Positions 273 through 45,344 of a stretch of 46,656 bases of DNA are shown here, one piece after another. Every line of letters starts with the position of its first letter. Position 1 is the first letter of the stretch. The notes below the pieces were generated by a model. It was not told the DNA's origin, made no database searches, and saw only the letters and a list, made by a program, of their open reading frames with translations. Origin of the DNA: Prorocentrum cordatum (lineage: Eukaryota); NCBI GenBank assembly GCA_963575745.1, contig CAUYUJ010000181.1:620001-666656 (forward strand), written 5' to 3'. Position numbers and translations under genes: made by a program.

Positions 273-1150
273 CTGTGCTACAATCGCGGGGCGCCTCCGA
301 GCGCGGGAGAGGCACCAGCGTCGAAATCCCAGGTAGCGAGGCCTGAAGGGCAGCCTGCTGGGCTCGGTCGGCCATGCCGGGAGCGCCGCAGCCATCGACG
401 CGGTCGGAAGCAGCGACCGCGCTGACAGTCAGTAGTGGTTGCTGCGGCTGAGGCTGATCATGCAGCTGTTCCGGTATATGCTTATGTGGCTCGCCTGCTT
501 GGCGCAAGCAAACATGCGACGATGGTAGCCGGCATGGCTGAGACTGCTCGCACTGATGGTGCTGCCAGTTCTGCTGGTGGTGGCACTGTTGATGCGGGCT
601 TTGGGAGCGATTCGGGCAAGGCTGCTGCTGTTGACCCAAAAAGTGTCCCCGGTTCTGAAGTGTGTCTTGTAACAAATTGCTGTGCTGCACAGGCTGGCAA
701 GGTTGCTGCAGCGGCGGCAACGGCGACCGATTGCACTGGCCGAGGGCGTGCACATTTCCGTGCTTTAGCCGTGGCTGGACAAACTGACGGTAGTGGCCAC
801 GGCGGTGCTGCTGGCACTCGGTGCCGTGCCGCTGCTGCTGGCGACTCTGCTGCTGTGGATGCAGCTGCGGCTGCTGCCGTGGCGACTGCCGCGGGAACTC
901 GTGCTGGCCCTGCAGCAGCGGCAGCCCTGCGGACAGAGCCCTGGCGCCCAGCCGCGGTGGCTCCGCGGGCGCTGGCGTGGACACGCCCGCGCGCGCCTCC
1001 GAGAGCGAGCGCCGTGGCGGGCAGCGCGCGCTAGCGGGCGCCAGCCCTGGCGGCGCGGCCGACGCCGCGGGGGCGCGCACCTCCTCGATCGCCGCGCGCG
1101 CGGCCAGGAACAGGGGCGTGGGGCACGCGGCGGGCGAGACCTCCATGAAA

Positions 1151-1385
1151 CAGGGACCGACCGTCCCGGCATTCCTATAGACAAAACAAAGCATTTTCCC
1201 ATGCTCCTAGAACCCATCGATGTTCTTATAACAAAACACGCTTTTCAGCACACATATTTCCCGACGAATGAAAACACGACAGCCTCTGAAAGAACTGTTC
1301 TAAGAGCGTTTCGCGCAGACCACCGAAAGGACCTCAGAAGACTCCTTGGTGGGCCGGCAGGCAAGCCAGGACGTTCCGCCACTGG
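1151..1385 (+). repeat. Dispersed repeat family D, copy 1
   Basis: Starts CAGGGACCGACCGTCCCGGCATTCCTAT (28 bp identical to 38930), then ATGTTCTTA repeats and AGCCAGGACG..CGCCACTG. Confidence 0.8.
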
Positions 1386-2662: not shown

Positions 2663-3964
2663 ATCCGCCGGCCCCCTTGTGGGGCCACCAGGCTGTAGGC
2701 CCGTGATTCGCAGTTTCCTGTACCAGTGGTAGCTTGTAGTTTCCAGTGTTACAGGTCTGCTTCTTGCTGGTTACTGTAACTAGTTGATTGACCGCGCGAG
2801 GGGGGGGGAGGCCCAAACGGGATTTTTAGCGTCTCATGGGCGCGTTGTCTGAATTGCTGGGGGGGCTCGAAATCGACACCCCTCACGCAGATCCGCGGGG
2901 TCAGGGTCCAAAAACACAGGGGATGTGCAACATTTCTGAAATTCGGTGCCACCCCTCACGCAGATCCGCGGGGTCAGGTCCAAAAACACATGGGATTTGC
3001 CACATTTCTGAAATTCGGTGCCACCCCTCACGCAGATCCGCGGGGTCAGGGTCCAAAAACATAGGGGATTTGCGACATTTCTGAAATTCGGTGCCACCGC
3101 TCACGCAGATCCACTGGGTTAGGGTCCAAAAACACAAGGGATTTGCCACATTTCTGAAATTCGGTGCCACCCCTCACGCAGATCCGCGGGGTTAGGGTCC
3201 AAAAACACAGGGGATTTGCCACATTTCTGAAATTCGGTGCCACCCCTCACGCAGATCCGCGGGGTCAGAGTCCAAAAACATATGGGGATTGCCACATTTC
3301 TGAAATTCGGTGCCACCCCTCACGCAGATCCGCGGGGTCAGGGTCCAAAAACACGAGGGATTTGCTACATTTATGGTTCCGTGCCACCCCTCACGCAGAT
3401 CCGCAGGGTCAGGGTCCAAAAACACGAGGGATTTGCTACATTTATGAAATTCGGCGCCACCCCTTACGCAGATCCGCGGGGTCAGGGTCCAAAAACACGA
3501 AGGATTTACTACATTTCTGAAATGCGGTGCCACCCCTCACGCAAATCCGCGGGGTCAGGGTCCAAAAACACAGGGGATGTGCCACATTTCTGAAATTCGG
3601 CGCCACCCCTTGCGCAGATCCGCGGGGTCAGGGTCCAAAAACACATGGGATTTGCCACATTTCTGAAATTCGGTGCCACCCTTCACGCACATCCATCGCA
3701 AGGCGTGGTAACCCAAACTGCGAGAACTCCCTCGGCCCTTTAATCGCAAGGTGTGGTAACCAAGCCCGTAAACCATACACGTCTTACCAATCGCCAGGTG
3801 TGGTAACCCCTCTTGTGATCAGTTGGTTTTGCTGATTGCGAATCGGCTTCGCATGAAGTTTCGATACTGCTTCACGACAGCGCCAAGGCCTCATGACTTA
3901 GCTCTTCCATGGCCCATTCTCCGAGAGAGGGGGCCGGCGGCAGGGGGCGAAGCCCTTACGGATA
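2663..3964 (+). mobile_element. Family H1 copy 1: non-coding element with asymmetric IRs, 3' hairpin and internal 73-bp array (Helentron/DINE-like)
   Basis: Starts ATCCGCCGGCCCCC and ends GGGGGCCGGCGG-CAGG-GGGCGAAGCCC-TTACGGATA. Both non-repetitive flanks (~210 bp left, ~120 bp right) are homologous to 16311-17169. Confidence 0.75.
2877..3690. repeat. 73-bp tandem array, ~11 units
   Basis: Unit CACCCCTCACGCAGATCCGCGGGGTCAGGGTCCAAAAACACAGGGGATTTGCCACATTTCTGAAATTCGGTGC; period 73 is also visible in ORF offsets 3046/3119/3192. Confidence 0.97.
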
Positions 3965-4907: not shown

Positions 4908-7305
4908 TTGGGTCGGGCATGTCCCCCTACAGGCGGATTTGGAAAAACAAAAAAAACAAAAACAAAAAATTATGAGAAAATAATCGATCAGGGTCAAAAA
5001 ATAATCAAAATATAGTCCCCGAACTATTTCCCGGCGGTGCCGGGTGAAATGCTGTGCCCGCCGGTGCGACTGACTGACTGACTCACTGACTGACTGAACG
5101 TCAGGAAGGCACTTCGGACAACACGTTTCAATTCGCCCGCGCGCAACCGCAACTGGGCGACACATTTCAGGCCGTAAGCGCGCGCTACCGCAACCGCAAC
5201 CGGGCGACACATGTCAACCTGCCCGCGCAACCGCAACCGCAACCGCAACCAAACGACACATTTCAACCCGCCCGCGCAACCGCAACCGCAACCGCAACTG
5301 GGAGACACATTTCAGCCCGCCCACGCGCGCAACAGCAACCGCAACCGGGCGACACATTTCAACCCGCCCGCGCAACCGCAACCGCAATCGCAACCGGGCG
5401 ACACATTTCAACCCGCCCGCGTAAACGCAACCGCAACCGCAACTGGGCGACACATGTCAACCCGCCCGCGCAACCGCAACCGCAACCGAAACTGAGACCG
5501 CCCTTGCGCGCAACCGCAACCGCAACCGGGCGACACATTTCAACCCGACATCGCAACCGCAACTGGGCGACACATGTCAACCCGCCCGCACGCGCAACCG
5601 CAACCACAACCAGACGACACATTTCAACCCGCCCGCGTAAACGCAACCGCAACCGCAACCAAGCGAAACATTCCAACCCGCCCGCGCGCGCAACCGCACC
5701 GCAACCGGGCGACACATGTCAACCCGCCGCGCAACCGCAACCGTAATCGCAACCAGACGACACATTTCAACCCGCCCGCGCAACCGCAAACGCAACCGCA
5801 ACTGGGCGACACATTTCAGCCGGCCCACGCGCGCAACCGCAACCGCAACCGGGCGACACATGTCAACCCGCCAGCGCAACCGCAACCGCAACCGCAACCG
5901 GGCGACACATTTCAACCCGCCCGGGCAACCGCAACCGCAATCGGAACCGGGCGACACATTTCAACCCGCCCGCGTAAACGCAACCGCAACCGCAACCGCA
6001 ACCGGGCGACACATTTCAACCCGCCCACGCGCGCAACAGCAACCGCAACAACACATGTCAACCCGCCAGCGCAACCGCAACCGCAACCGCAACCAAGCGA
6101 CACATTTCAACCCGCCCGCGCAACCGTAACCGCAACCGCAACAGGGCGACACATTTCAAACCGCACGCGCAACCGCAACCGCAACCGCAACTGGGCGACA
6201 CATTTCAACCCGCCCGCGCAACCGCAACCGCAACAAAAACTGGGCGACACATTTCAGACCTCCCGCGCGCGCAACCGCAACCGCAACCAAGCGACACATT
6301 TCAACCCAGCCGCGCAACCGCAACCGCAACCGCAACTGGGAGACACATTTCAAAACACCCGCGCGCGCAACCGCAACCGCAATCAGGCGACACATTTCAG
6401 CCCAACCGCGCAACCGCAACCGCATCCATATAGCACAATTCAACCCGCGCGCACAACCGCAACCGCAACCAAGCGACACATTTCAACCCAGCCGCGCAAC
6501 CGCAACCGCAACCGGGCGGCGCAAATCAACCCGCCCGCGCAACCGCAACCGCAACCGCAACCGGGCGACACATGTCAACCCGCCCGCGCAACCGCAACCG
6601 CAACCGCAACTGGTCGACACATTTCACCTCGGGTACACACACGTCATGGTTCACCTTGCTCTCGTGTGCACATTTCTCTTTTCGTTGTTCGCTCACCTGC
6701 GGTCCTCCTGCAGAGGATCTGAAGAGGAAGGAGGGTGGGATGGAGGAGGGATGGCGGGAGGAGGGAGGGAGGAGGGAGGGAGGGCGGGGGGGAGCAGGGA
6801 GGGGAGGAGGGAGGGAGGAGGGAGGGAGGAGGGAGGGAGGAGGGAGGGAGGAGGCAGGGAGGGGATGAGGGAGGGAGGGAGGATCACGAGGAAGAGGAGG
6901 AGGAGGGGGAGGAGGAGGGAGAGGAAGAGGAGGACGAGAGACAGCGGGAAGAGAGGATTGGGCAGGATGGCCAGGAGGAGGAGGAGGACCACGACGACGA
7001 CGACGACGATGGGGAGGGGGATGCGGCGGTGGTCGTGTTCCAGAGGGTTGTAGGAGCAGGCGCCGATGGAGGAGGGGACCCGATGGCTCGATAGGAATAT
7101 AGAGGGCCAGGAGGTTGCGACGGAGGAGGGGGATGCCGATGAGGAGGACGAGGGGGAGGAGGAGGGCGAGGAGGAGGAGGACGAGGACGCGGCTCTCCGC
7201 CGGGACATTGCAGCGGGGGATCCCCATTCCACGCTGCTGCCTCGGATTTTTGACTACGTAGTTTTGGATACGTATTCCTCCTGTAGAGGGACATGCCCGA
7301 CTTAA
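4908..7305. mobile_element. Pair of TIRs of the same MITE family, 2.4 kb apart, enclosing the CAACCG array
   Basis: Left TTGGGTCGGGCATGTCCCCCTACAGG (4908); right CCTGTAGAGGGACATGCCCGACTTAA (to 7305); no clean TSD. Confidence 0.55.
5120..6627. repeat. Compound minisatellite: GGGCGACACATTTCAACCCGCCCGCG plus (CAACCG)2-4, ~39-51-bp units
   Basis: Roughly 30 units; a constant core with a variable hexamer count. Confidence 0.95.
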
Positions 7306-16310: not shown

Positions 16311-17169
16311 TATCCGCCGGCCCCCTTGTGGGGCCACCAGGCTGTAGGCCGAAGGTTCGCAGTTTCCTGCACCAGTTGCAGCTTCCAGTTTCCACTGTTA
16401 CAGTTCTGCTTCTTGCTGCTTACCGTTCCTTGTTGATGGACCGCGCGAGGGGGAGGAGGCCCCAACGGGCAGGTTTAGCACGCCCTGAGCGTGTGCTCTG
16501 AGTTGCTGGGGTGGGTAAAAATTTGACACCCCTCACGCAGATCGGCGGGGTCAGGGTCCAAAAACATATGGGATTTGCAACATGTCTGACATTCGGTGGC
16601 ACCCCTCACGCAGGTCGGCAGGGTCAGGGTCCAAAAACAAATGGGATTTGCCACATGTTTGGAATTTGCTGGCGCCCCTCACGCAGATCGGCGGGGTCAG
16701 GGTCCAAAAACGCAGGGGATTTGCTGCATTTCTGACATCTGGTGGCACCCCTCACTCAGATCGGCGGGGTCAGGGTCCAAAAACACATGGGATTGGCTAC
16801 ATTTCTGAAATTCGGTGGCACCCCTCATGCAAATCGGCGGGGTCAGGGTCCAAAAACACATAGGATTTGCAACATGTTGTAAATTCTGGGGCACCCCTCA
16901 CGCACTTCCGCGCGGTCAGGACACAAGAGACTTCCAACATTTTCGAATTCGGGGAGAAGATTTGGGCACAGCATACGGGATCAAATAGAATACAACAGCG
17001 AATACAGCAAAAGCCTGGCAATCTCCATTCGTCTTGCCAATTACCTATCGTCTTCGCATGAAGTTCCGACGCTGCTTCACGGTGAAGCCAAAGCCTCATG
17101 ACTTCGCTCTTCCATGGCCCATTCTCCGAGAGAGGGGGCCGGCGGCAGGGGGCGAAGCCCTTACGGATA
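16311..17169 (+). mobile_element. Family H1 copy 2 with ~5 units of the 73-bp repeat (16527-16905)
   Basis: AAAAA|TATCCGCCGGCCCCCTTGTGGGGCCACCAGGCTGTAGGCC ... CCATGGCCCATTCTCCGAGAGAGGGGGCCGGCGGCAGGGGGCGAAGCCCTTACGGATA|AA, matching the ends of copy 1. Confidence 0.75.
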
Positions 17170-18510
17170 AACTACCCCGTCGCCCAGATGCGTCTGACAG
17201 CTAACTTTCGGGCTCGTCTAGGGGTATTCTTCCTCATGCGAGTTTCGACTACGTTTTTGAACGCGCCCCAGGATCAACTTTTGGACGCTGCTGGGCCCAG
17301 CTTGGGGCCCGAGGCGGAGCCCAGACCGGCCCCGAACCGCCCCCGTTTTTGATGCCATGCGGACGGGGCTGCGGCCCAGCGAGGATGTGCTCTCGCGTGG
17401 GCCGCCCGGAGTCTCCACCGCGGCCGCCTCGTGCCCTCCTTGGGCGCCCTTTTGGGGGCCCTGCTCGGGGCCTCTTCGGCCCTCGTGGGCGCCTTTCGGG
17501 CCGCTCTCGGGCCGTGTTACGGCTGTTCTCGTGCAGCGTTTTGGCTGTCGCTGACCTCCTGCAATACGGGCTACAGAGAGCCAACGGCCATACCACTGAT
17601 CCGTGGTAACGATGACGGGTCGATGACGAATGGATGAATGCAACATCGATCCGCCACACGGCCCACTTGAGCCCGATCTGTTATGGAATGGAGGAGAGAT
17701 GGAGCAAAGAAAACAATACAAAACACACACTTTGGGGAATCTGCCACTACTTTCGGAATATATTCACCAAGTCTTGGCGCCGTCTGCGCCTCTTCCGGCG
17801 AGAACTGGAATGAGTGGGCGGTGAATGCCTCCCCCCCAGGGGACCTCTGCGAGCAGTTCGGGAACAGCTTGCGACCCTCTGGAGCCAGCTTGGTCTGCAG
17901 GGGCGATATTCGAGGCGGGGCATCTCGGAGTGTATTCCTACAGCCTCTAGTAGCCCATGTTGCCATCTTATCTTTGACACCAGTCAAAAGATTTGGAGGA
18001 TCGAGAGGCCAAGGTGACGCCTGGGATATCACGGAGGTGGACTCACCCCCAATTTGGAATTCGAGCCCCCGCTTTTTTGCCTTGCATGTCCTTGTCCGCG
18101 TAGATCTCCTTTCTTACAGGTAGAGAGTGTACCCAAAGGGACGAGACATAAGTATAGATATACATCAAGAGAGAGAGAGAGGGCGAAAAAGAAAGAAAGA
18201 AATAAACATAGAAAGAGAAAGAGAGAGAGAGAGAGGTAAAATCACAACAAACAAATAGCGATACAATGTTTGTACGCAGAGGGGGGTCCTGGAGGGGGGT
18301 CCCGGTGGAGGTCCCGTCGGTGGTGGGGGAGGGTGGCCTCGGGCCAGAATGCCCCCCCCCCGTGGTCCAGGCGGGCCCCTGGGGGGGGAGCGCCAGCAGC
18401 GGTCCCCGGGGGAAGTCCTGTCTTCGGGATCTGTTGCACAGGCCGTCAGGCAGTGGTCGATAATGTGGGATGACGATTAAAGAAAAAAAGGAGGGGGGAA
18501 CGATTGAAAA

Positions 18511-19609
18511 CATGATGGACCCACGAACCCGGAAAGGGATATAGACATGTGGAGCATGGACACGTTTTCACGATACCCAACTGGGCAACACCTCACGAAA
18601 CATCCCACGAGACACTTCACGAAACATCCCACGAGACACCTCACGAAACATTCCACGAGACACCTCACGAAACATTCCACGAGACACCCCGCGAAACATT
18701 CCACGAGACACCCCACGAAACATTCCACGACGACAGGCAACCACTCAACCAAGGCGGTGTGGTCGTGCTGGGGAGTGGTCGTGCTGGGGTGTGGTCGTGC
18801 TGGGGGGTGGTCGTGCTGGGGGGTGGTCGTGCTGGGGGGGTGGTCGTGCTGGGGGGTGGTCGTGCTGGGGCGTGGTCGTGCTGGGGCGTGGTCGTGCTGG
18901 GGCGTGGTCGTGCTGGGGTGTGGTCGTGCTGTGGTGAGGTCGTGCTGGGGTGTGGTCGTGCTGGGGTGTGGTCTTGCTGGGGTGGGGTCGTGCTTGGGTG
19001 GGGTCGTGCTGGGGTGTGGTCGTGCTGGGGTGTGGTCGTGCTGGGGTGTGGTCGTGCTAGGGTGGGGTCGTGCTGGGGTGGGGTCGTGCTGGGGTGTGGT
19101 CGTGCTGGGGTGTGGTCGTGCTGGGGTGTGGTCGTGCTGGGGCGTGGTCGTGCTGGGGTGGGGTCGTGCTGGGGTGGGGTCGTGCTTGGGTGTGGTCGTG
19201 CTTGGGTGGTCCGCACCATGTGATTTATCGATCGGGTCGTGCTGGGGTGTGGTCGTGCTGGTGCTGGGGTGTGGTCGTGCTGGGGTGTGGTCGTGCTGGG
19301 GTGTGGTCGTGCTGGGGTGTGGTCGTGCTGGGGTGTGGTCATGCTGGGGCGTGGTCGTGCTGGGCGTGGTCGTGCTGGGGTGTGGTCATGCTGGGGGTGT
19401 GGTCGTGCTGAGGTGTCCCGCACCCTGTGATTTATCGATCGGGATTTCAAAAACAAGCGTTTCGCCTGAGACATCCTCAAATTTTAATCCGCCGGCCTCC
19501 TTCGACCTCGATATTAATCAGGGAAAGAATCCGCCGGCCTCCTTCAAGTTGGGCACCGGGGACATTTTTACATAGAAAAAGAGAACCCTGGGCCCGCGCC
19601 CTTTCCGGG
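18511..19609. mobile_element. Family H2 copy 1: element carrying a 24-bp array (18590-18730) and a 16-17-bp GGGGTGTGGTCGTGCT array (18757-19410)
   Basis: GAAAA|CATGATGGACCCACGAA-CCCGGAAAGGG (18528-18538) ... GAACCCTGGGC-CCGC-GCCCTTTCCGGG|AAAA. The left ~40 bp and right ~165 bp are homologous to 24817-26307. Confidence 0.75.
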
Positions 19610-20422
19610 AAAATAGTTTCCCCCACCGGGGGGGAACGCTCAGAAGCAGGGCTCGCCTGTGCGGTGTTTCGTTACCGGGGGGGGCGCGCGCCCGAGGACG
19701 GCGGGGGGGGACAATTAGAAAAATAGTTTCCCAGCCCGGGGCAGGTTTTTTCTTATCATCATCCCGGGCGCCGCCGCGTGAACACGACCCCCGGTCATTT
19801 TTTAATCATCATCCTCCATTACCCGGGGGGGGGTAGCGGTAATTTCAAGCGCATACCACAAGCTTGGCCCAAACAAAATTCAAAACAACAAGTTGACCCA
19901 AAAAACCCTCACGCCAAAGCGAAAGCGGATTTCCGTTTTAGTGGCCTTCCCTGCCCCTTCTGGGACCAATCCTACAGACGACCCAGCTCTCTGACCCCCA
20001 GACAAACCCAACCGGTAACCCTTAAGCGGGGTACAACATATCGGGATGTCGGTGCGCTTCGATCGCCGTTGCATGCGCGCGAGCACCAGCGTGCGGGACG
20101 GGGTCCGGTGCCCCCCCTTACGTGCAATCGCCATCGTTGCCCGGGGGCGGCGGGCCCTGATAACGACCGTTACGCGCCAGAGGATACGAAATCAGAGCGG
20201 GGGGGCCGAACGGCCATTCACTGTCACTGGGTACGTGGCTGAACTCAGCTTCCTCGTCGAGGATTCTGTTTGTTTACTGTTGTTTAAATCTCAGTTCTTA
20301 ATAATCCCTCCAGTGCCCATTGTTTTTTCCATGGAGTGCCCCTCCTGGGTCTCGAGCCATGAACTTTTCAATGGGGAATCCTGACGCTCAGGCTGGGCCC
20401 CTGGCACCCGAACTATAATAAT

Positions 20423-20503
<81 letters not shown>

Positions 20504-21814
20504 AACGACAACGACAATGACAACGACAACAACAACAAACTCTCCCGTCTGATACTCTCACGGCTTATTGAAAACCGCGCTCTCGCTCGAGAACTCCATG
20601 CAATTTATCTTGGAATCGCGCTCTCGCGCGGGCTCCCTCTCAATTCCGTGAAACGTCGCGCCCTCGACACTTAGGAATCACGCTCTCACACTGGACTTCC
20701 TCACGATTGACTTGGGAAGCGCGCTATCGCTCGAGACTTCCTCGCGATTCATGCAAGACTAATGCTTCAACGACCCGCCAGCTCGACCGGGCCGTTAGGG
20801 TCCGCCCGCCCGACCCGCCCGTCGGGTTTTGCTGCTTGCTTCTGACTCCTATCCCGCACCTGCGAATCTCTCGTGTTCTTTCCTTCTCCTTCCCCCCTTT
20901 CCCTCCCCTCCTTACTCCCGTCCAGTTTTAGAGGGCGTGCCAAGTACACGTGGCAATTGAGGAAGATATATACCCTCTGAGGGGGGTACCCCAGGCGGGT
21001 ACGATCGAAGACGGAGAGTGCGGGTATCGAGGGTTTGGGATATGAATGCTCAAGAACACGCAGACAGATACGAGCAGTTTTGAAATGATTATCGTTGTTG
21101 TTTGTTGTGTGTTGAATCTTCACTTCTAGAAGAAGAAGAAGAAGAAGACGGTATTCTCCCCCTCTCTGGTGCCCAGTGTGTTTTTCAATTGATGTGCCAC
21201 TCTCGGGGTTCGCATCCTGTTGTTTACCAAGAAAAGTCTTGAGGCTAAGAATGTGGCGCTGGCATTCGGTCGCGCTCGCGCATGGGACTTCCGCACCATG
21301 AGCGCAAGAATCGCGTCCTCGCATTAGGCGTCCTCGAAATTGATTGAAACGCCGCGCCCTCGACACTTAGGAATCACGCTGTCGTTTGGGACTTTCTCAG
21401 GATTTACTTGGGAATCGCGCTGTCGCTCGAGACTTCCTCGCGATTCATGCAGGAATCATGCTCCACCAACCCGACCGCTGGACCAGCCGTCTGAGCCCGC
21501 CCGACCGACCCGCCCGTCTAGGTTTGCCGCTTGTTTCCTGCTCCAAACTCCCCTCCTGCGAATCTCTCTCGTGCTTCATCCCTCCTCCCTGTCCTTCACC
21601 CCATCCATCCCTTCCAGATTTAAGGGATGCGGTAAGGAAAATCGCCCTGGAGGGGGGGGCAAGATCTAAGACGAAGAGGGCGGGTATCGAGGGTTCGGGA
21701 CATACCTGATGAGTGGCACGCGAGCAGTCGAGAACGAACAGTTTAAAATGCGTTGTGTTTGTTCATGTTCTTGATGATGGTGTTGTTGTCGTCATTATCT
21801 TCGCTCTCGACCCA

Positions 21815-22545
21815 GCCCGCGACACACACACGCGACCCACCCCGCGACCCACCCCGCGACCCACCCGGGACCCACCCGCGACCCACCCGCGACCTACCCT
21901 GCGACTTACCCGCGACCCACCCCGCGACACACCCGCGACCCACCCGCGACCCATCCTGCGACCCACCCCCCGACCCGGCGGCGTCGTTGTCGTCAATGTC
22001 GTCGTCGTCGTCGTGTTCGTCGTCGTCGTCGTGTTCGTCGTCGTCGTCTTCGTCGTCTTCGTCATTTTCGTCGTCGTCGTCGTTTTCGTCGTCGTGGTCG
22101 TCGTCGTCGTCGAGGGCGTCGTCGAGGGCGTCGTCGACGGCGTCGAGGACGACGACGACGAAAACCGGGAGAGATTTGCAGCGCGCCCGGCCGCGCCCTC
22201 GGCGCGCCCCTCGAGCGCTTCGAGCTGGGACGCCTGGCAGGTGAAGCCGGACAGGTCCCTGGACGACGCCTTGGGCAAGGAGGGGCCGAAGGAGGGAGGA
22301 GGAGGGAGGAGGGAGGAGGGAGAAGGAGGAGGAGGAGGAGGAGGAGGAGGAGAAGGAGGAGGAGGAGGAGGAGGAGGAGAAGGAGGAGGAGGAGGAGGAG
22401 GGAGGAGGAGGAGGAGGAGGAGGAGGGGGAGGAGGAGAGGAGGAGGAGGAGGGGAGGAGGAGGAGGAGGAAGAGGAGGAGGAGAAGGAGGAGAAGAGGAG
22501 GAGAAGAGGAGGAAGAGGAAGAAGAGGAGGAGGAGGAGGAGGAGG
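21815..22545. repeat. (CGCGACCCACC)n, then (GTC)n, then (GGA)n tracts
   Basis: The same 11-bp repeat occurs inverted at 23385-23570. Confidence 0.9.
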
Positions 22546-24029
22546 ACGCGACGCGCAGCGCCTTGGGCAAAGATGGAGGCGATGCGCAGAACAAAACGGG
22601 TAAGGCTTCGGGTTGCCTCTTTGTTGTCGTTAAACTCTCATTTTTGGAGGAAACATTAGATCTCCACCAGTGCACGCTGCTTTTCCAATTGGAAAGCCTC
22701 CTTGGGGCTCGCAGCCTGTTCTCTACCGAGGAACAAAAATCTTCTTGCTCAAACTGTGCCCCTGGCCCCCTGGCTACAACAACAACAATGGCTCCCGCCT
22801 GATACTTCCTCACAGTTGACCTGAGAATCGCGCTCTCGCGCGGAACTTCCTCACAATGTATGCAGGAATCGCGCTGCTGCATGGGACGCCCTCCCAATTT
22901 ATTCAAACGCCGCGCCATCGACACTTAGGAATCACGCTTTCGCTTTGGCTTTCGCAGGATTTACTTGGGAATCGCGCTGTCGCTCGAGACTTCATGCAGG
23001 AAACACGCTTCAGCAACCAGCCTGCTCGAGCTGGCCACCTGGGCCGCCTTCCCGACCCGCCCGTTAGGGTCTGCCCGCCCGATCTGCCCGTACGGCTCTA
23101 CCACGTTGTTTCTGCTCCTAGCCCCCCTCCTGCGAAGTCTCTCGTGTTCCATCCCTTTTGCCTCCCCCTTCCATTCTCTCTTCCCTTGCTTTAGGGGCTG
23201 CACAATGAAGGAAAGTGCACGTGGAAAATAAGGAAGATACACCGACAAGCGGGTACGATCGAAGACGAAGAGGGCGGGCATCGAGAGTCTGGGATATGCG
23301 TGTCGAATGGCACGCAAGAAGGTCAGAGCGAACAGTCTAATGCAGCACCCCGCAATTGCGAATGACAATGAGTGGGCGGGCGCGGGGTGGGTCGCGGGTG
23401 GGTCGCGGGTGGGTCGCGGGTGGGTCGCGCGTGGGTCGCGCGTGGGTCGCGGGTGGGTCGCGGGGTGGGTCGCGGGTTGGTCGCTGATAGGTCGTGGGAG
23501 GGTCACGGGTGGGTCGCGGGCGGGTCGCAATGTGGGTCGCGGGGTGGGTCGCGGGATGGCGCGGGTGGGTTGCGGGCGGGCCGCGGACGAGGACGACGAC
23601 AACAACGAAACAACGCAACGCAACAACAACCAGCACCGTGGAAGCCCACTTTCAGCCACGCACCCAGGGACAGTGAAAGCCAGCTCGGCCCAACCACTCT
23701 GAAATGTATTGTTGATGTTGCTGTTGTTGTTGTAGTTGTTGCTGCTGTTGCTGCTGCTGATGTGATTGTTGCTGCTGATGTTGATAGTGTAATTGTTCAC
23801 GTTGTTATTGTTGTTGTTGATGTTGTTGTTGCGTTGTTGTTGTCGTCTTCGTCGTCGTTGCTGTTCGAAGAAACGGAGACACTGGCCCGAACTTGTTGTT
23901 GAGTGTTTCTTCTTGTTGGAGAACCGAATATTTACCCTTCAGGGTCAGCAGAGCTCCAGCAAACGCGGGCTTGCCCCACGGGGCCGGAGGTGTTGGCACT
24001 GAGTCGGCGGTGTCAGGGGCTTCCATGGG

Positions 24030-24541
24030 GCCGTTGCACCCCTTCGTGGCGCCCTCGCAGCCTTTCGTGGCCACGTTGCAGCCCTTCGTGGCCCCCTCGC
24101 TGCCCTTTCGTGGCCCCGTTGCAGCCCTTCGTGACCCCCTCGCTGCCCTTCGTGGCCCCGTTGCAGCCCGTTCGTGGCCCCCTCGCTGCCCTTCGCGGCC
24201 CCGTTGCAGCCTTTCGTGGTCCCCTCGCTGCCCTTCGTGGCCCCGTTGCAACCCGTCGTGGCCCCCTCGCAGCCCTCCGTGGCCCCGTTGCAACCCTTCG
24301 TGGCCCTCTCACTGCCCTTCGTGGCACCGTTGCAGCCCTTCCCGGCCCCCTCGCTGCCCTTCGTGGCCCCGTTGCAGCCCTTCCAGGCCCCCTCGCTGCC
24401 CTTCGTGGCCCCGTTGCACCCCTTCGTGGCCCCCTCGCTGCCCTTCGTGGCTCCGTTGCAGCGTTTCGTACCCCCCTCGCTACCCTTCGTGACCCCCTTC
24501 CAGCCCTTCGTGGCCTCCTCGCTGCCCTTCGTGGCCCCGTT
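24030..24541. repeat. 21-bp minisatellite with alternating subunits (CCCTTCGTGGCCCCCTCGCTG / CCCTTCGTGGCCCCGTTGCAG)
   Basis: About 24 subunits forming a 42-bp dimer. Confidence 0.95.
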
Positions 24542-24816
24542 CCTTCTTGGCCCCATTGCTGCCCGTCCTTTCTCCCTCGTCTTCCTGTCTGAGGGGCTGC
24601 GCGAATGGCACATGTCAGGCAAAGAATATAGTCCCCTTAAAGGGGTACAGTCGAAGATGAAGAGGGCGGGCCACGAGGTTGTGGAACATGCATTTTGAGA
24701 GGCACGCACGCATGTAAGAGCGAACAGTCTTAGAATTAGTGTTGCTGTTGGCCTCGCTCTTCTAAAGAAAAGCTGTTGTTGATCCCCCCTCCAGTGACCA
24801 TTGTGCTCTGTTGAAA

Positions 24817-26307
24817 CATGATCGACCCACGAACCCGGAAAGGAATATAGAACTGTAACACATGGCAGCGTTTTCAAAGACACCTGATTGGGTGACGGGC
24901 AAATGCAATGCTGAGTGTATCGATCTTGATGTACCCTGCCGAGGGCTGTGCTGTGCTGCGCCGTGCTGAATTGCGATGTGCCATGGCGCGACTGTGCTCT
25001 ATAGCCTCGTGGATCGAGTCCTCCTTTGCATCCGAGTCCTGACCGAACTGATCTGGATCTTAAGCTCGAGCTGCCTGAACACATAGTAGCTGCCCCAGAG
25101 CTAATGGACAGGGGAACATGCCAGGAGGACGCGCCGCGAAACGTCCCAAGGGATGCGCCAGGCGACGTGCCAGGGGACGTGCCATGGGGTCGCACCGCGG
25201 GACGTGCCAAGGGGACGCGCTACGGAACGTGCCAATGGATGTGCCACGGGATGTGTCAGGGGACGCGCCACGCGACGTGCCAGGGGGACTCGCCAAAGGA
25301 CGCCCCACGGAACGTGCCAAGGAACGTGCCAAGTTGCAATGCTGAGTGTATCGACCTTGATGTACCGTGCCGAAATCAGTGCTGTGCTGCGCCGTGCTGA
25401 ATTGCGATGTGCCATGGCGCGATTGTGCTCTATAGCCTCGTGGATCGAGTCCTCCTTTGCATCCGAGTCCTGACCGAACTGATCTGGATCTTAAGCTCGA
25501 GCTGCCTGAACACATAGTAGCTGCCCCAGAGCTAATGGACAGGGGAACATGCCAGGAGGACGCGACGCAGAACGTCTCAAGGGACGCGCCAAGCGACGTG
25601 CCAAGGGACGTGCCATGGGGACGCACCGCGGGACGTGCCAAGGGGACGCGCTACGGAACGTGCTGGGGACAAGCGTTTCGCTCGAGACATCCTGTCAAAA
25701 TCATCTGAATTCCTACGCGCGGGACGCTGCACGCGCGAGACATCCTCGGAATTCCTGCGAGCGGGACGTGATAACAAGCATTTCGCCTGAGACATCCTTT
25801 GAATTCTGGCCCCCCACAAGGCCACCGCTCGAGACATCCTCCAATTTTGCAAAACCAGCGTTTCGCTCGAGACATCCTCTACAAATTATGAAAAACAAGC
25901 GTTTCGCTCGAGACATCCTGTCAAAATCCAAAGAAATCGAAATACCCGAGCGCGGGACGCGGCACGCGCAAGACATCCTCAGAATTCCTGCGCGAGGGGC
26001 GCTTTTCCGTGTCGCGGTCGGCTCTGCAAAACCAGCGTGTCGCTCGAGACATCCTCAACAAATTCTGAAACCAAGCGTTTCGCTCGAGACATCCCCAACT
26101 CTGCAAAACCAGCGTCTCGCTCGAGACATCCTCAACAAATTCTGAAAAACAAGCGTTTCGCTAGGGACATCCTCAAATTTTAATTCGCCGGCCCTCTTCC
26201 CACTTGTTATTTATCGCAAAAGAAATTCGCCAGCCCTCTTCCCGTCAAACCCGGGGGGAAACCATCTAAAAGATAAAAGAGAACCCTGGGCTTATGCCCT
26301 TTCCGGG
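24817..26307. mobile_element. Family H2 copy 2: same ends, different cargo (431-bp duplication, GACGTGCCA repeats, GCGTTTCGCTCGAGACATCCT repeats)
   Basis: GAAA|CATGATCGACCCACGAACCCGGAAAGG ... GAACCCTGGGC-TTAT-GCCCTTTCCGGG|AAAA. It interrupts a host repeat unit whose uninterrupted paralog is at 26920-27000. Confidence 0.8.
24905..25662. repeat. Tandem duplication with 431-bp period
   Basis: 24905-25235 is nearly identical to 25336-25662 (ORFs at 25026 and 25457 share their first ~60 aa). Confidence 0.95.
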
Positions 26308-28039
26308 AAAAGGTGCTCTTCCCGGTGCTCGCACCCTGTTTTTACGAAGGCAAGTGAGATGTCACCTAAGCGGCCCCATGGCCCCCGAGTTCCTAAAAAA
26401 ACTCGCGCGGGTCGCGCTCTCGCGTGAGACATCCTCCGATTTACTCAGACGCCACGCCCTCGACACTTAGGAATCACGCTTTCGCCATGGCTTTTCTCAT
26501 GACTTACTTGGAAATCGCGCTGTCGGTCGAAACTTCGTCGCGATTCATGCAGGATGCACTCTTCAGCAACCCGCCTGCTCGACCTGGCCGTCTGGGCCTT
26601 CCTTACCGACCTGCCCGTCAGGTTCTACCCGTCCGATCTGCTTATCTGGTTTTGCCAGATGCTTTCTGCTCCTAGACCCACTTTTGCTACTCCCTCTCGT
26701 GCTCCATCCATCCTCCTCCGTCCTCTCTTTTCCTGCCTCAGGGGCTGCACGGAATGCACGCTGCAGGTTAAAAAGATATACCCCCTAAGGGGGTAAGATC
26801 AGGGGGCGGGTATCGAGGGTTGGGGATACACGTGTTGAGTGGCACGCGAGCAGATAAGAGCGAACAGTATTACAATAATTGCTGTTGTTGACTTCTCCTT
26901 CCTAAAGAAAACTGTTTCTGATCCCCCCTCCAGTGACCGCTGTGTTCTGTTTTACAAAATGTTATTCCCGGTGCTCGCACCCTGTTTTTTAAAAGGGCAA
27001 GTGAGGTGACACCTAAACGGCCCCCTGGCCCCCGAGTTACGGAAATAACGCGCGCGGGACTTCCTTACAATGTACGCAGAAATCGCGCTCTAGCGTGAGA
27101 CTTCCTCGCAATTTACTCAGACGCCGCGCCCTCGACACTCAGGAATCACGCTTTCGCTTTGGCTTTTCTCATGATTTACTTGGGAATCGCGCTGTCGTGG
27201 GTCTACCCGCCCGATCTGACCATCTGGTTCTGCCACGTGCTTTCTGCTCCTGGCCCCCCTCCTGCTACTCCCTCTCGTGCTCCATCCTCCTCCCTCCCCC
27301 TTGTCCCTTCCTTCCATCCGTCCTCTCTTCCCCTGCCTCAGGGGCTGCACGAAATACACGCTGCAGGTAAGAAATATAGAACTCACCCCCAAGGGGTGCG
27401 ATCGAAGACGAAGAGGGCGGGTATCGCCGGTTGGGGACACGCGTAGCAGATAAGAGCGAACGAGATTAAACTGATTGGTGTTGCTATTGTGGTTGCAACT
27501 GCTGTTGTGGTTGAATTGTTGTTGCGGTTGTTGTTGTGGTTGCTCTTCTTGCTGTTGTTGCTGCCGCTGTTGTCGTCGCCCCACTCGCGACCCGGCCCGC
27601 GACCCACCCCGCCGGGTGGCCCCAGACAGTCTCCGCTGCAGGCAGCCCCGGACAGCCTCTGGCGCCGCCCCCCTGAGGAGCTCCGCGCGTCCAGGGCGGG
27701 GGCGCGAACGCCGCCCCGGACTGTCCCGGGGGGGCCCGTGGAGGCCAGCCGGGACCACCGCGGGGGGCAGCCCAAAGGCTGACCGGACAGAGCACCTGCA
27801 CACACGCCGCAACCTCTTGAGGGAACGCGATGCACCGTCGCCAGCCTCAGACAATTCGGTCAGGGGGGGTCTCGGAAAGCGAAGGGCCCCTCCGTCCTGA
27901 ACAAAACCTGCAGTGGGTTCCTCAGAAAGCGGGGACCGCCCCCCTCCCCCCCTGCCTACCTACCCCCGCCCCCCAAGAACTGGGAGGTCCGGACACCCTC
28001 CCCCGCGCAAGGGGAGGTGGGAAGAAATGAACCTCCCGC

Positions 28040-28173
28040 CCGTCGCCGCCGCCGCCGTCGCCGTCGTCGCTGTCGTCGTTGTCGCAGGCGCCATCGCCGT
28101 CGACTTGGCCGTCGCCGTCGCCATCGCCGTCGCCGTCAACGTCGCCGTCGCCGCCACCGCCGTCGTCGTCGCA

Positions 28174-28271
<98 letters not shown>

Positions 28272-28588
28272 TGCCGTCGTCGTCGTCGTTGTCGTCGTAG
28301 TCGTTGTCGTCGTCGCCGCCACGGGCCAGAACAGACCAGAATCCAAAGTAGGTCACGTCCACCACGGGCCAGATTCAGACCAATTAGGTCACGTCCACCA
28401 CCGCCACCGTCGCCGACTCCGCCGTCGCCGTCGTCGTCGTCGTCGCCGTCGTCGTTGTCGTGGTGGTCGTGGTCGTGGTGGTGGTGGTGGTGGTGGTGGT
28501 GGTGGTGGTGGTGGTGGTGGTGGTGGTGGTCGGGGTCGTGGTCGTGGTCATGGAGGTCGTGGTCGTCGTCGTCGTCGTCGTCGTCGCC
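28040..28588. repeat. (GTC)n and (GGT)n microsatellites
   Basis: Direct reading. Confidence 0.95.
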
Positions 28589-28804
28589 TTGAGGGGGGGG
28601 GGGTGTCCTGGACCCCCCCGATTTGTTTTTGCTTTTGGGGGGTCGGGACCCCACCCCTGTTTTGTTGTGGGGGTGGAGTTGGGAGGGGTTGAAAACCCCC
28701 CTGCCACTAGTGTCAGAAAGCATTCGTTCTAAACTTCCTCTAGTCTGGGCGGGTTTCTTGGGTCGGCGCTGGGCATTCCTCCCTTGCGCGCATATTGCGC
28801 CCAG

Positions 28805-31560
28805 GGGAAGGAAGGAAGGAAGGAAGGAAGTCCCGTCTAAGGCCCGGGGCGGGCGGGACGCCTCAGAAGAACATGTCCATCTCACCAGTGAATGTCAGTA
28901 GCCCAAGCAACATAATCCTCAGCTCTGCGATGCCACTCTTGTGGTTCTGTCGCAGTTGTTTGCCAGCTGCCCAGGCCCTAAGCCTTGCAGAATCTCCGCA
29001 GAGAGTCTTCGAACCGCATCCAAGGTCGCGACGACGGGCGTGTGAGGCGTGACGATCCCAGCTCGGACACGGCGGCCTGCCATTCTGAGTCTCTCCAGAT
29101 GGTGACCTTCCTCACCCAAGACGAATAGCTGGATGTAGCGACTCTGGACGCCCATTTCCACTTCCGTCGGAAGTGTTCCGGTGCCCACTCTTTGAGGCCA
29201 GCGCTGCCTGCGTGCTCCCGCGCCTTGTGAGTGGCACGTTGGACCCAGTCCACCCATTGCTCGCCTTCCTGGCGCCCGGAACCAACGATGCGCCGGAGCA
29301 TGGCGCTCTGCGTGGCTTTGAGTCTCCGCAATTCCTCTGCTCGCGGTGTCCACGACTCAGCAGCCCACAGCACGGTCTCTGTCACCGTGGCGTCAAACAG
29401 CTTCAAGCGCTTCCTCAAAGAATACGATTTGTTCAACAACAAGCGTTTCAGATTCCAGAATTTCCTCCATCCGGCCACGACCCGGTTCTCGATCTCGGCC
29501 CCGGTGACGTCCTCAAGGGAGACGACGGTTCCAAGTAATTCCAGATGCTCTCCCTCCGTCAGAACATCGATGCAGAAATTGTCAGCTAAAGACACCTGGC
29601 CCCTGCGCTGGGAGTTGGGCCGGTTCGTCTGCACCTTACACTTGCTCGGGTGCAGGGACAGCCCCCTCCTCGCCAGAGCATCCCTTAGCGTCAGAATCAT
29701 CCGCTTGATAGAAAGCCAGCTTCGCGCAATCAGGGCCTGATCATCCGCGAATACCACGTGGGTAAGGCGATGGCCCCTGAAGTCCTGTCCAACATTGGTG
29801 CCGTAACCTCGTTTTCTCCAGACTACACTCACCTCGCGCAACACTCCGTCAAGAACAAAGTTGAACAACACCGGCGATAAAGGGTCGCCTTGCTTCACGC
29901 CTCTCTGCACCACGAAACGCCGGCTCTCGGCGCCGTCCCAAAGCGAGACATATCCTTTGACGCCGTGGTACAAATGCCGCAAGGCATTCACAGCAGACGG
30001 GGCGATATCGTTGCTCACCAAAGCGTCGGACAGCGCAGCGTGGTGGACTTTGTCAAATGCTTTTTCCACGTCCAACGTGGCAATCCACAATTCTTCGCCC
30101 CACTCCAGCGACTTTTCGATAACCGTTCGAATAATACGAACTGCATCCGAGCATCCTCTCCCCGGTCTGAAACCGAACTGCTCTTCAGACAGCTTGGAGT
30201 CGATGTCCGAGGCAACCCGGAGGTACAGCACGGTACTGAACAGCTTGGCCATCACAGGAATCAAGGCTATCGGTCTGTAGTTCTTTGGGAGGGACGGATC
30301 ACCCTTCTTGAACAGGACCCGGAATTTCGTAGCCTTCCATTCCTCTGGCGGCGCCAAACTCCCTTGAACCATCTGCGTAAAGAACTCTGCGATTACTTGC
30401 AGTAGCCTCGAATGCTCTGTTTTCAACATTTCTGCCACCAGCCCGTCGTCAGCCCCCGTTTTACCATTCTTTAACTTGCGAACCGCCTTCAGCAATTCCG
30501 CTTCCGTGACACCGTCGTTGTACTCGTTGGTCTGAGGCGCGAGCTCGCCCCCCCTCTCCTCGTGGTACAAGTCCTCATAGAACTGAGCGAACACTTCGCA
30601 GATCGACGCCGGGTCTTTCTGGGCAACGCCGTCCTTATCTTTGACGAGCAAGGTCCGGTCTATGCCTTTGTGTCTCTGCTGTGCCCGGCGCAGCGCCTGA
30701 AGACCAGCGCCCTTGACCACTAATGCTTCCAATTCCATGTCTTGTTTTTCTCTTCGTTGTCGACGCACTGCCCTCCAGAGCTGTTTGGAGAGAGCGCGCC
30801 GCCTGTCCGGGTCCGCCTCATCCCGGCGCTCGTCGAAGAGTCTCTGGACTCCCGGGTTGTGCTTGAGGCGGCCGTCGGCTGGCTTGTCTTCGCCAGTGCG
30901 CGAAGCGACCAACACCACCTTGTCAGTCGGATCCTCCTTGGGGTCATGGTCTTTGAGAATGCGGTCAAGGCCGTCATGGAATGCTTCAGGTTCGCCATTT
31001 TGTGCGGCAGATGGCTTCCATCCCACCTTCAATCGGGGACCTCGTTTCCTTGTAGGCCTTCCTGCGAGAGCAAAGTCTGCCGTGAAAGCTCGATGGTCAG
31101 ATTGTCCTTCCACAAAAGTAACAACATCCCAATCGCGAAAAGTTCCGGCTGCGATTTCGTCAATAAGTACATAATCGATTTGTCTCCTCTCCCCGGTGCT
31201 CCACAAACGGTGCGTCCACTTATCGCTCTCCGCTTTCGGGGAGAAAGTGGTGACAGCTGCAAGCTTGGTTCCGTGCAGCCACTCGGCCAGCAACCCTCCT
31301 CTACGGCATCTGCGGCCAAAGCCATGCTCCCCGATGAAATCTGGCGAATCCGTGCAAGTTTGAGCCCCCAGAACTGCGTTCGCATCAATCCCAAGAATGT
31401 TCGTAAGCCCTTTTGTGCGCCCTTCCTGAACCACATCAGCCAGAGACACAAGAAGATCATCGTATTCCTCCTCCGGCCCATCTCTGTGAGGAAAATGAGC
31501 TGTCACCAATCTGAGTTTGGAGCGGCCCGTGTCCAGCGCAGGCACAAGAAAATCCGTGCG
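28805..31560 (-). mobile_element. 5'-truncated RTE-clade LINE copy with short 3' UTR and (TTCC)n tail
   Basis: N-terminal APE motifs are absent and the in-frame upstream sequence is unrelated. The reading frame continues past TAG 28978-28980 to TGA 28882-28884. About 50 nt of UTR is followed by a GGAA tandem tract at 28806-28830 on +. The 5' boundary is approximate. Confidence 0.85.
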
Positions 31561-31689
31561 GACCTCAGAAAGCGCATGCTCATGCTGCCTTCTGTTCCTC
31601 GAGAGGAGGCGGACTGAGGAGGACGAAGACTGCGTTAACAGCGAGGACGAGCACAAGGAGGGGATGGGTCGGTCGGTCGGACAAGGCAT
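28978..31689 (-). CDS. Non-LTR retrotransposon ORF (RTE-like): C-terminal half of APE endonuclease plus reverse transcriptase; 903-aa ORF whose first ~40 aa are probably not element-derived
   Basis: APE motifs LVTAHFPH, GIDANAVLG, RRQIDYVL, SDHRAF. RT motifs KKGDPSLPKNYRPIALIP, EEQFGFRPGR, TLDVEKAFDKV, GVKQGDPLSPVLF, VFADD (29740-29751), GLSLHPSKCK, LELLG. RTE-type C-terminus RKWKWASRV...RPWMRFED. No RNase H or CCHC knuckle seen. Confidence 0.95.
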   Translation of the reverse strand: MPCPTDRPIPSLCSSSLLTQSSSSSVRLLSRNRRQHEHALSEVRTDFLVPALDTGRSKLRLVTAHFPHRDGPEEEYDDLLVSLADVVQEGRTKGLTNILGIDANAVLGAQTCTDSPDFIGEHGFGRRCRRGGLLAEWLHGTKLAAVTTFSPKAESDKWTHRLWSTGERRQIDYVLIDEIAAGTFRDWDVVTFVEGQSDHRAFTADFALAGRPTRKRGPRLKVGWKPSAAQNGEPEAFHDGLDRILKDHDPKEDPTDKVVLVASRTGEDKPADGRLKHNPGVQRLFDERRDEADPDRRRALSKQLWRAVRRQRREKQDMELEALVVKGAGLQALRRAQQRHKGIDRTLLVKDKDGVAQKDPASICEVFAQFYEDLYHEERGGELAPQTNEYNDGVTEAELLKAVRKLKNGKTGADDGLVAEMLKTEHSRLLQVIAEFFTQMVQGSLAPPEEWKATKFRVLFKKGDPSLPKNYRPIALIPVMAKLFSTVLYLRVASDIDSKLSEEQFGFRPGRGCSDAVRIIRTVIEKSLEWGEELWIATLDVEKAFDKVHHAALSDALVSNDIAPSAVNALRHLYHGVKGYVSLWDGAESRRFVVQRGVKQGDPLSPVLFNFVLDGVLREVSVVWRKRGYGTNVGQDFRGHRLTHVVFADDQALIARSWLSIKRMILTLRDALARRGLSLHPSKCKVQTNRPNSQRRGQVSLADNFCIDVLTEGEHLELLGTVVSLEDVTGAEIENRVVAGWRKFWNLKRLLLNKSYSLRKRLKLFDATVTETVLWAAESWTPRAEELRRLKATQSAMLRRIVGSGRQEGEQWVDWVQRATHKAREHAGSAGLKEWAPEHFRRKWKWASRVATSSYSSWVRKVTIWRDSEWQAAVSELGSSRLTRPSSRPWMRFEDSLRRFCKA

Positions 31690-41539: not shown

Positions 41540-41652
41540 CTTTCCTGGGGTGCGCTCTGAACAAAATCTCAGGGCGAATCCAGCCGTGGCGACGAGGGCC
41601 TCGCGGGAGGCCCCAAAAGAGGAAAATGAAGCAAGTGCAGTGGTTTCGGTAC
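41540..41652 (+). mobile_element. Family E partial copy
   Basis: CCTGGGGTGCGCTCTGAACAAAATCTCAGGGCGAATCCAGCCGTGGCGACGAGGGCCTC. Confidence 0.7.
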
Positions 41653-41691
41653 AGTGGAGGCCAGTCCACAAGAAACCTCCCACAAAAAAAA

Positions 41692-45242: not shown

Positions 45243-45344
45243 TTATTTGTTCCTCAACCCTTTTCTGTTCTACTCTTATCTACACTGGTTTGAGGGAGTT
45301 TCTGTGGAACTCACGTCATCCTCACCCCCGGCGCGAAGAGCACG

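Follow-up and report, generated by a model that had tools for sequence, protein, structure and literature searches.

Two intervals of the DNA examined here, a stretch of 46,656 nucleotides (nt) from a Prorocentrum cordatum contig (CAUYUJ010000181.1, positions 620,001 to 666,656; hereafter the window), are copies of one very abundant, non-coding mobile family of a GC-rich planktonic eukaryote. Copy 1 lies at 18511-19609 and copy 2 at 24817-26307. We propose that the element, when read on the minus strand, probably works like a non-autonomous rolling-circle element of the HLE2/HINE kind (Helitron2/Helentron); five features of the published HLE2/HINE anatomy are found in it.

Within this extremely repeat-rich eukaryotic sequence (GC content about 0.52-0.72 per kb), the two intervals were originally predicted to have in common a left end and a right end of about 165 base pairs (bp), and BLASTN alignments bear this out. 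The left ends (18504-18570 and 24811-24876) are 83.8% identical over 68 nt (E 4e-13), and the right ends (19449-19613 and 26145-26311) are 75.7% identical over 169 nt (E 1e-18). The left-end 20-mer GACCCACGAACCCGGAAAGG occurs exactly twice in the window, as against 0.02 occurrences expected from shuffles, and the right-end pattern GAGAACCCTGGGC-N4-GCCCTTTCCGGGAAAA, which has 29 specified bases, likewise occurs twice, as against 0.00 expected. A covariance model of the right end found two sites only in the 46.6 kb, at 61.0 and 59.7 bits, with the runner-up at 9.1 bits. These results clearly demonstrate that the two copies have both ends in common, arranged alike, far above chance.

The ends of each copy are linked by an inverted repeat (IR) of 10-11 bp, CCCGGAAAGG(G) / (C)CCTTTCCGGG. 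The arms match at 100% in copy 1 (18528-18538 and 19599-19609, 11 nt) and in copy 2 (24834-24843 and 26298-26307, 10 nt), and they are placed asymmetrically, 0 nt from one end of the element and 17 nt from the other, as in Helitron2. Beside the right IR stands the hairpin GGGC-N4-GCCC. Copy 1 has the loop CCGC and copy 2 the loop TTAT, and the right IR is overlapped by the 3' arm (plus strand) of the hairpin. The predicted right-end hairpin, with its conserved stem, its differing loops and its overlap with the 11-bp IR, is thus present in full. An A-run is found on each flank in both copies. The coordinates of these features are collected in Table 1.

That the element is repeated is indicated by contigs that were taken from four public runs (X1, X2, X3 and X10) and aligned to the region 24500-27100. 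In X1, from which 55,515 contigs aligned to the region, the 17 bins between 24761 and 26239 had a summed contig depth of 25,984-122,331, a measure that according to the tool's own warning is not a copy number. The bin straddling the right end (26240-26326) had 5,353, the one on the left side of the element 620, and the two on its right side 0.9-27. The profiles of X2 and X3 have the same shape. The depth is very high within the element and falls off sharply at either end, and the profile shows that the whole of copy 2, including the material between its ends, is highly repeated. The bin at the hairpin end was shallower than the interior bins in X1, which may merely reflect short, loop-variable contigs. 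The 42-bp array that adjoins copy 2 (24031-24541) is also very high-copy in the runs, as seen in the first depth bin.

The contigs also delimit the element. They begin matching at 24814 in X2 and at 24815 in X3, and the X10 contigs carry unlike sequence upstream of 24814/24815 (consensus agreement 0.57), which shows that the flanks vary among copies. X2 has junction contigs of the copy 1 type before position 26145, and X10 has them after 24851; hence both architectures are multi-copy. In four X1 contigs 430 nt are skipped, so single-unit versions of the 431-bp duplication of copy 2 exist; further joints skip 232-294 nt within the 41-bp arrays, so array length differs among copies. A single contig of X2 passes directly from 26308 to 24814, with 35 nt on the shorter side and 3 shared letters. 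This join is a head-to-tail junction in which right and left ends are separated by the A-run alone. Taken together, the findings show a mobile, non-coding element with dispersed copies, which did not arise by local duplication.

The hairpin end was found outside the window as well. Metagenome contigs were scanned with the pattern GAGAACCCT-N(8-20)-TTTCCGGGAAA, in which the 12 hairpin nt were left free, and 22 loci were returned. Eight of them (L003, L004, L005, L007, L009, L010, L020 and L022), with nine instances, have the architecture of the element end, usually as a block of about 40 nt that consists of TAAAn, GAGAACCCTG, the 12-nt hairpin, TTT(T)CCGGG and an A-run of 3-8 nt. The remaining 14 loci have neither the hairpin nor the A-run and are chance matches; L001 and L018, which carry a different, longer insert, were set aside as unrelated or uncertain. 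The eight contigs have a GC content of 41-56% and are otherwise unrelated to the window, save that L009 matches copy 1 over 88 nt at 84%. L003 and L010 are one locus. L005 and L022 represent one family at different sites: over 877 nt they agree at 98%, and their sequences part one base past CCGGGAAA, whereby the terminus is fixed independently. L022 holds two head-to-tail copies 900 nt apart, and interior tandem repeats are seen also in L004 and in L005/L022.

The check proposed with the original prediction, covariation of the hairpin stem, gave a positive result. In a set of 10 sequences with 4 stem pairs (40 cells), the stem reads GGGC/GCCC, GGTC/GACC, GGCC/GGCC or GTGC/GCAC, with L003 having GGC/GCC. 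Pairing is retained in 39 of the 40 cells, and double changes (GC to UA or CG) occur at two of the four pairs, in 5 cells. None of 500 shuffles reached the covariation score, and controls with slid partners were 35-62% paired. The hairpin end is, therefore, a conserved terminus across otherwise unrelated sequences. Viral contigs gave no match to the right-end pattern and none to the left-end 20-mer. Among GTDB genome contigs, the sole match to the left 20-mer, in a metagenome-assembled genome of Gemmatimonadales (L023), was identical by BLAST over 20-22 nt only and was rejected as a chance match.

Two of the metagenome loci have noteworthy surroundings. In L007, a protein-kinase exon (612-1274, minus strand) halts after the catalytic-loop motif, and the hairpin end (320-351, minus strand) lies about 260 nt downstream; the element may occupy an intron or interrupt the kinase gene. 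Directly past the A-run of the hairpin end in L003 (103-405) and L010 (421-723, both in motif orientation) is a 10-bp array of 30 units (GGAAAAATCT). This array lies outside the element as oriented in the window, and it represents either an insertion into an A/T-rich microsatellite or a different architecture.

Copy 2 was predicted to split a host repeat unit of which an unfilled paralog exists in the window, and the alignment confirms this. The left flank of copy 2 (24654-24812) is 78% identical to 26795-26951, and the right flank (26319-26411) is 86% identical to 26965-27058. The filled site has 1506 nt (24813-26318) where the paralog has 13 nt (26952-26964). The four bases that adjoin the left end are wholly different, GAAA in the filled site and TTAC in the paralog; because the paralogs have diverged, the junctions are fixed only to about +/-4 nt. 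The filled/empty comparison shows an insertion into an A/T run. A minus-strand T-run abuts both ends of both copies, and a T-run also abuts each of the nine metagenome instances. The host repeat unit recurs, with GGAATCGCGCT... motifs, at 20560-20760, 21240-21470, 22800-23000, 26400-26560 and 27050-27200; it builds the region between and after both elements, and copy 2 lies inside one unit. The right flank of copy 1 starts with GAAAATAGTTTCCC...CCGGGG (19607-19640), which recurs about 110 nt further on (19716-19745) as a small local repeat.

The accompanying statement that there is no clear target-site duplication (TSD) did not hold to the same degree. No variable TSD was seen in either of the two copies, but GAAA(A) stands on either side of both, and the sole empty site is a paralog of only 78-86% identity, so that a duplication of 4-5 nt is possible. 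One could envision that the element is a non-autonomous member of another, possibly undescribed type of DNA transposon, which targets GAAA(A) or A-runs and duplicates 4-5 nt, or which is moved by some other single-strand enzyme. Both copies are readable as GAAA(A)[CATGAT...TTTCCGG]GAAAA, and the core TTT(T)CC-G-GGAAA(A) is palindromic in 11 of 11 instances; in this case the palindromic core TTTCCGGGAAA would be a protein-binding site. The scan pattern had TTTCCGGGAAA fixed, however, and the 11 of 11 is thus not an independent observation. The absence of the 3' palindrome of HLE2, and of any match to published Helitron2 or Helentron/HINE sequences in the searchable supplements, would also suit such a transposon. 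On the other hand, the very ends of the element are not mutual IRs, and a one-sided offset of 17 nt is unlike cut-and-paste elements with terminal inverted repeats (TIRs) and typical of Helitron2. Furthermore, the contigs of other copies stop matching at 24814/24815, which places the G of GAAA outside the conserved flank. We think that this explanation is unlikely.

It might also be asked whether the element is mobile at all. Tandem and segmental repeats dominate the window and head-to-tail junctions do occur, and it might be argued that the two intervals are remnants of segmental duplications, or a dispersed satellite unit that has these ends by chance. We regard this as very improbable. Copy 1 and copy 2 have different flanks, as do L005 and L022 and the contigs at 24814/24815; the host repeat has a paralog without the element; and the terminal motif is kept, with covariation, in otherwise unrelated contigs of 41-56% GC.

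How such an element might move is suggested by its anatomy. Read on the minus strand from 5' to 3', it consists of a T-run, the terminal IR CCCGGAAAGGG nested in the hairpin, the module of about 165 bp, the arrays, the complementary IR, 17 nt and a second T-run. The last bases of the terminal IR pair with the next bases to form a 4-bp stem with a 4-nt loop. Helitron2 has asymmetric IRs of 8-15 bp; the 5' IR, at 0-2 bp from its end, contributes to a 5' hairpin maintained by compensatory changes, the 3' IR, at about 20-30 bp from its end, is followed by a 3' hairpin, and insertion takes place after TTTT without TSD (Bao and Jurka 2013, PMC3627910). The 5' end of our element is built in this way (T-run, CCCGGAAAGGGC, 4-nt loop, GCCC), and the distance from its 3' IR to the end, 17 nt plus 2-4 T, agrees roughly. 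HLE2 is characterized in the HELIANO paper by short TIRs and T-T insertion. The position of the 5' subterminal inverted repeat (subTIR), the central tandem repeats, the high copy number and the non-coding nature also fit HINE/DINE-1.

Several observations weigh against the HLE2/HINE reading. No palindrome or hairpin follows the 3' IR: when the 51-nt end was folded, the minimum free energies were -1.7 and -1.4 kcal/mol, 137 and 154 of 200 shuffles folded as well, and the only palindrome there is the 4-nt CATG. Pfam scans of the window and the eight related loci found no Rep/helicase or endonuclease gene; the matches were limited to an RVT_1 frame, a kinase and a pentatricopeptide (PPR) protein. 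Of the frames of the element, the one scanned (18046-18567) has no Pfam domain; the others are low-complexity array frames. The folding energy of the 5' hairpin is unremarkable (z 0.07 and -1.57), and the hairpin is thus supported by its covariation only. An inverted partner of the terminal repeat was seen in none of the eight related loci, up to 3.4 kb upstream on contigs that are short, and the other end of the head-to-tail unit of L022, as we read the sequence, bears a near-copy of the terminal repeat in direct and not in inverted orientation. It is the putative 5' end that is widely conserved, contrary to the norm given in the HELIANO paper, by which the left ends of HLEs are usually more diverse than the right ends. 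The GAAA(A) on both sides of each copy, described above, points in the same direction. Because the 3' hairpin is absent and no Rep/helicase partner was found in the window or the eight loci, we liken the element to HLE2/HINE and consider membership unproven. The earlier comparison with DINE-1 accordingly stands in part: the minus-strand layout agrees with the anatomy of Helitron2, HINE and DINE-1, but membership finds no support, there being no 3' palindrome, no Rep/helicase/endonuclease partner found in these scans and no DINE-1 core.

Two further classes of DNA transposon do not describe the element. Canonical Helitrons (HLE1) begin with 5'-TC, end with 3'-CTRR, have a 16-20-nt palindrome about 11 bp from the 3' end and insert between A and T. 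The ends here, CATGAT... and ...CCGGG(A)n, have no TC and no CTRR, and in the plus-strand reading the 12-nt hairpin lies 8 nt before CCGGG. Cut-and-paste TIR elements (MITEs) have IRs at their very termini and a TSD of fixed length, whereas the IR here is offset by 17 nt at one end, and the terminal bases CATGAT... and ...CCGGG are not complementary.

Read on the plus strand, the same structure might be a non-autonomous retroposon, similar to a SINE or SVA, in which the hairpin and the A-run serve as a 3' tail for a LINE reverse transcriptase and the arrays form a centre of the variable-number-tandem-repeat (VNTR) type. Elements of the SINE/non-LTR kind have variable TSDs, a 3' tail that is poly(A) or matches a LINE, and a 5' part of pol III type or derived from a LINE. 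Past CCGGG, copies and families have A-runs of different lengths, from 3 to 8 nt, and the hairpin end is the end kept across families, like the 3' tails of LINEs and SINEs. The other end was seen in none of the eight related loci, as 5' truncation predicts (although the contigs are short), and a LINE-type reverse transcriptase frame exists in the window (28978-31689, minus strand). That LINE, however, has no such tail: nothing similar to the element end occurs in its 3' region (27900-29100, minus strand), and the covariance model R1 finds nothing nearby. Moreover, none of the A-runs is long, an A-run stands before the left end as well, and copies 1 and 2 have identical GAAA(A) flanks, whereas the target duplications of retroposons would differ from copy to copy. 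Retroposons do not need the 10-11-nt IR that links the ends, and only AAA(A) separates head-to-tail units. No tRNA-like or Rfam-like 5' part was found; ARAGORN reported 0 tRNAs, and Rfam, at E up to 1, gave nothing on the element ends and only low-complexity miRNA-model matches in a GAC/GTC array. For these reasons a retroposon origin seems improbable to us. SVA-type composite retroposons have fixed ends, a variable-number tandem-repeat centre and an A-rich tail. The element is like them in its fixed ends, its VNTR-like centre and its A-rich tail, and it differs in that its ends are linked by an IR, its A-run has 3-8 nt, the same A-run is found on both sides, and no LINE with such a tail was found.

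We return to the HLE2/HINE-like element and to what lies between its ends. The original prediction held that the two copies carry entirely different tandem-repeat cargo. The arrays do differ between the copies (Table 1), and BLASTN with a word size of 7 detected no similarity between the 24-bp array of copy 1 and the 12/24-bp arrays of copy 2. The two parts of the copy 2 duplication, 24904-25110 and 25335-25541, are 96.6% identical. The 41-bp units of copy 2, by contrast, align in BLASTN, at 87-96% identity, with the beginning of copy 1's right module (19449-19480), and this array is, therefore, an expansion of the module and not foreign cargo. The word "entirely" goes too far, since the arrays of copy 2 derive in part from the shared right module, and in the contigs both cargo types are themselves multi-copy variants of the family.

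Table 1. Features of the two element copies and of the unoccupied host repeat, in window coordinates.
Feature	Position	Strand	Basis
Copy 1, core CATGAT...CCGGG on plus strand	18511..19609	-	shared ends, covariance model, IR
Copy 1, A-run (minus: T-run) abutting left end; target or terminus	18507..18510		sequence, analogy with copy 2 boundary
Copy 1, 17-nt terminal segment outside IR (minus-strand 3' end); without convincing hairpin	18511..18527	-	sequence, folding
Copy 1, subterminal IR (minus: 3' asymmetric terminal IR/subTIR), plus strand CCCGGAAAGGG	18528..18538	-	IR search
Copy 1, 24-bp tandem array, 6.1 units	18588..18735		repeat finding
Copy 1, 16-bp tandem array, 41 units	18756..19416		repeat finding
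Copy 1, shared module of ~165 bp adjoining hairpin end (minus: 5' module)	19449..19609	-	BLASTN
Copy 1, hairpin GGGC-CCGC-GCCC, 3' arm (plus) within terminal IR	19590..19601	-	alignment, covariation, folding
Copy 1, terminal IR (minus: 5' asymmetric terminal IR), plus strand CCCTTTCCGGG	19599..19609	-	IR search
Copy 1, A-run (minus: T-run) past hairpin end	19610..19613		sequence
Copy 2	24817..26307	-	shared ends, covariance model, IR, contig boundaries
Copy 2, left-boundary A-run; contigs of other copies begin matching at 24814/24815	24814..24816		contigs
Copy 2, subterminal IR, 10 nt	24834..24843	-	IR search
Copy 2, 431-bp duplication, 12/24-bp array in each unit	24904..25541		repeat finding, alignment
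Copy 2, 41/77-bp units related to first ~30 nt of shared module	25669..26176		BLASTN, repeat finding
Copy 2, shared module adjoining hairpin end	26145..26307	-	BLASTN
Copy 2, hairpin GGGC-TTAT-GCCC	26288..26299	-	alignment, covariation, folding
Copy 2, terminal IR CCCTTTCCGGG	26297..26307	-	IR search
Copy 2, A-run past hairpin end; X2 contig joins 26308 to 24814	26308..26311		contigs
Paralogous host-repeat copy without element; site 26952-26964 = TTACAAAATGTTA	26795..27058		alignment

One mechanism that would account for this organization is as follows. A Rep/helicase encoded elsewhere would nick beside the T-run and peel off one strand, recognizing the hairpin and the IR in single-stranded DNA. 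The two IRs would pair and so mark the end point, as in the model of Bao and Jurka (2013), and the strand would be inserted into another T-run without a true target duplication. Head-to-tail dimers might arise from read-through or from insertion beside a resident copy. The central arrays would be turned over by replication slippage and unequal exchange, and we propose that this is why copies with the same ends carry different arrays.

If this proposal is correct, much of the repeat load in a widespread eukaryote of the plankton is due to one non-coding family of the rolling-circle type, which acts as a vehicle that creates and spreads tandem arrays, comparable to HINEs in oysters and DINE-1 in flies. 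Different arrays between the same ends are already known for HINEs; what is new is the family itself, its apparent abundance in a planktonic protist, and the covarying end of about 40 nt that recurs across several plankton sequences. A more tentative idea, to which we give a limited chance, is that this end (TAAAn-GAGAACCCTG, the 4-bp covarying hairpin, TTT(T)CCGGG and the T/A-run) marks an undescribed lineage of single-strand transposons, rolling-circle or of another HUH type, in several marine plankton eukaryotes, perhaps transferred horizontally. Its non-autonomous members would constitute a large share of the genome and seed satellites, and the recognition end would be kept across hosts of 41-61% GC while all else, including the other end, would be lineage-specific. 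Helitron-like elements are poorly catalogued in protists, and the 40-nt signature provides a searchable handle on the family and its putative autonomous partner in protist genomes and metagenomes. The hairpin end also offers a defined substrate for tests of 5'-end recognition by HLE2 transposases.

Other features of the window deserve mention. The only recognisable protein domain found in it by Pfam is the LINE-type reverse transcriptase noted above; the frame is intact, encodes 903 amino acids (RVT_1, E 2e-33) and has no detected endonuclease domain, and its closest relatives are metagenome proteins at 51-55% identity. Arrays of one 11-bp unit lie in opposite orientation at 21808-21976 and 23385-23586 (CGACCCACCCG and, as its complement, GGGTGGGTCGC). 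Between them are about 1.4 kb with (CGT)n and (AGG)n arrays, and the two form a large inverted minisatellite pair. Satellites have units of 73 bp (2831-3785 and 16409-17000, two places 13 kb apart), 77 bp (41649-43003), 122 bp (45248-46653), 49 bp (5078-6680) and 42 bp (24031-24541).

No description of the family was found in the literature searched. The element termini were unmatched in the supplements of PMC3627910 (12 of 14 files) and PMC4067079 (9 of 10), and the four motif strings, when looked for in full texts, gave no matches other than unrelated ones of primer or site type. Judged by titles and the starts of abstracts, none of the papers listed on Helitrons in haptophytes or coccolithophores describes the element family.

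Among known systems, the non-autonomous Helitron2 elements (e.g., Helitron-1N1_CRe of Chlamydomonas; PMC3627910) resemble the element in having short asymmetric IRs, one at the very end within a compensatorily kept hairpin and the other about 20 nt from the opposite end, in adjoining TTTT, in showing no clear TSD (although a duplication of 4-5 nt is possible) and in having no coding capacity. The element differs from them by having no hairpin after the 3' IR, by its large central tandem arrays, and in that no RepHel partner was found in the window or the eight related loci.

HINE/DINE-1 elements have subTIRs of 12-15 bp, the 5' one 2-4 nt and the 3' one 38-60 bp from the end, and a palindrome of 5-10 bp located 8-35 bp from the 3' end; in DINE-1, the 5' half of a short inverted repeat is nested in the 5' subTIR (Thomas 2014, PMC4067079). 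HINEs enter T-rich targets without forming a TSD, and two or more T, in variable number, lie on either side of them; some HINE/DINE-1 copies have central tandem repeats (PMC4067079). In contrast, the subTIR here has 10-11 nt, the 3' one is 17-21 nt from the end, the 5-10-bp 3' palindrome and the DINE-1 core are absent, the host is a protist and not an arthropod, and no endonuclease-bearing partner was found. The two are alike in the subterminal IRs (11 nt here), the hairpin arm that lies within the 5' subTIR, the T-rich flanks (two or more T on either side, in variable number), the central repeats and the very high copy number.

The Cg_HINE elements of the Pacific oyster consist of left and right flanking modules with a subTIR of 11-12 bp, and a complementary repeat lies in the left flank 1-12 bp from the left subTIR; in some of these elements the flanks are common and the central repeats are not (Vojvoda Zeljko et al. 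2020, PMC7492417). Their sequence and host are unrelated to ours, the complementary repeat is 7-12 bp long as compared with 4 bp here, and our element has no palindrome after the other subTIR. Nevertheless, Cg_HINE and the present element are alike in their flanking modules with a subTIR, in the complementary repeat near one subTIR, and in the satellite-like central repeats that differ between shared flanks.

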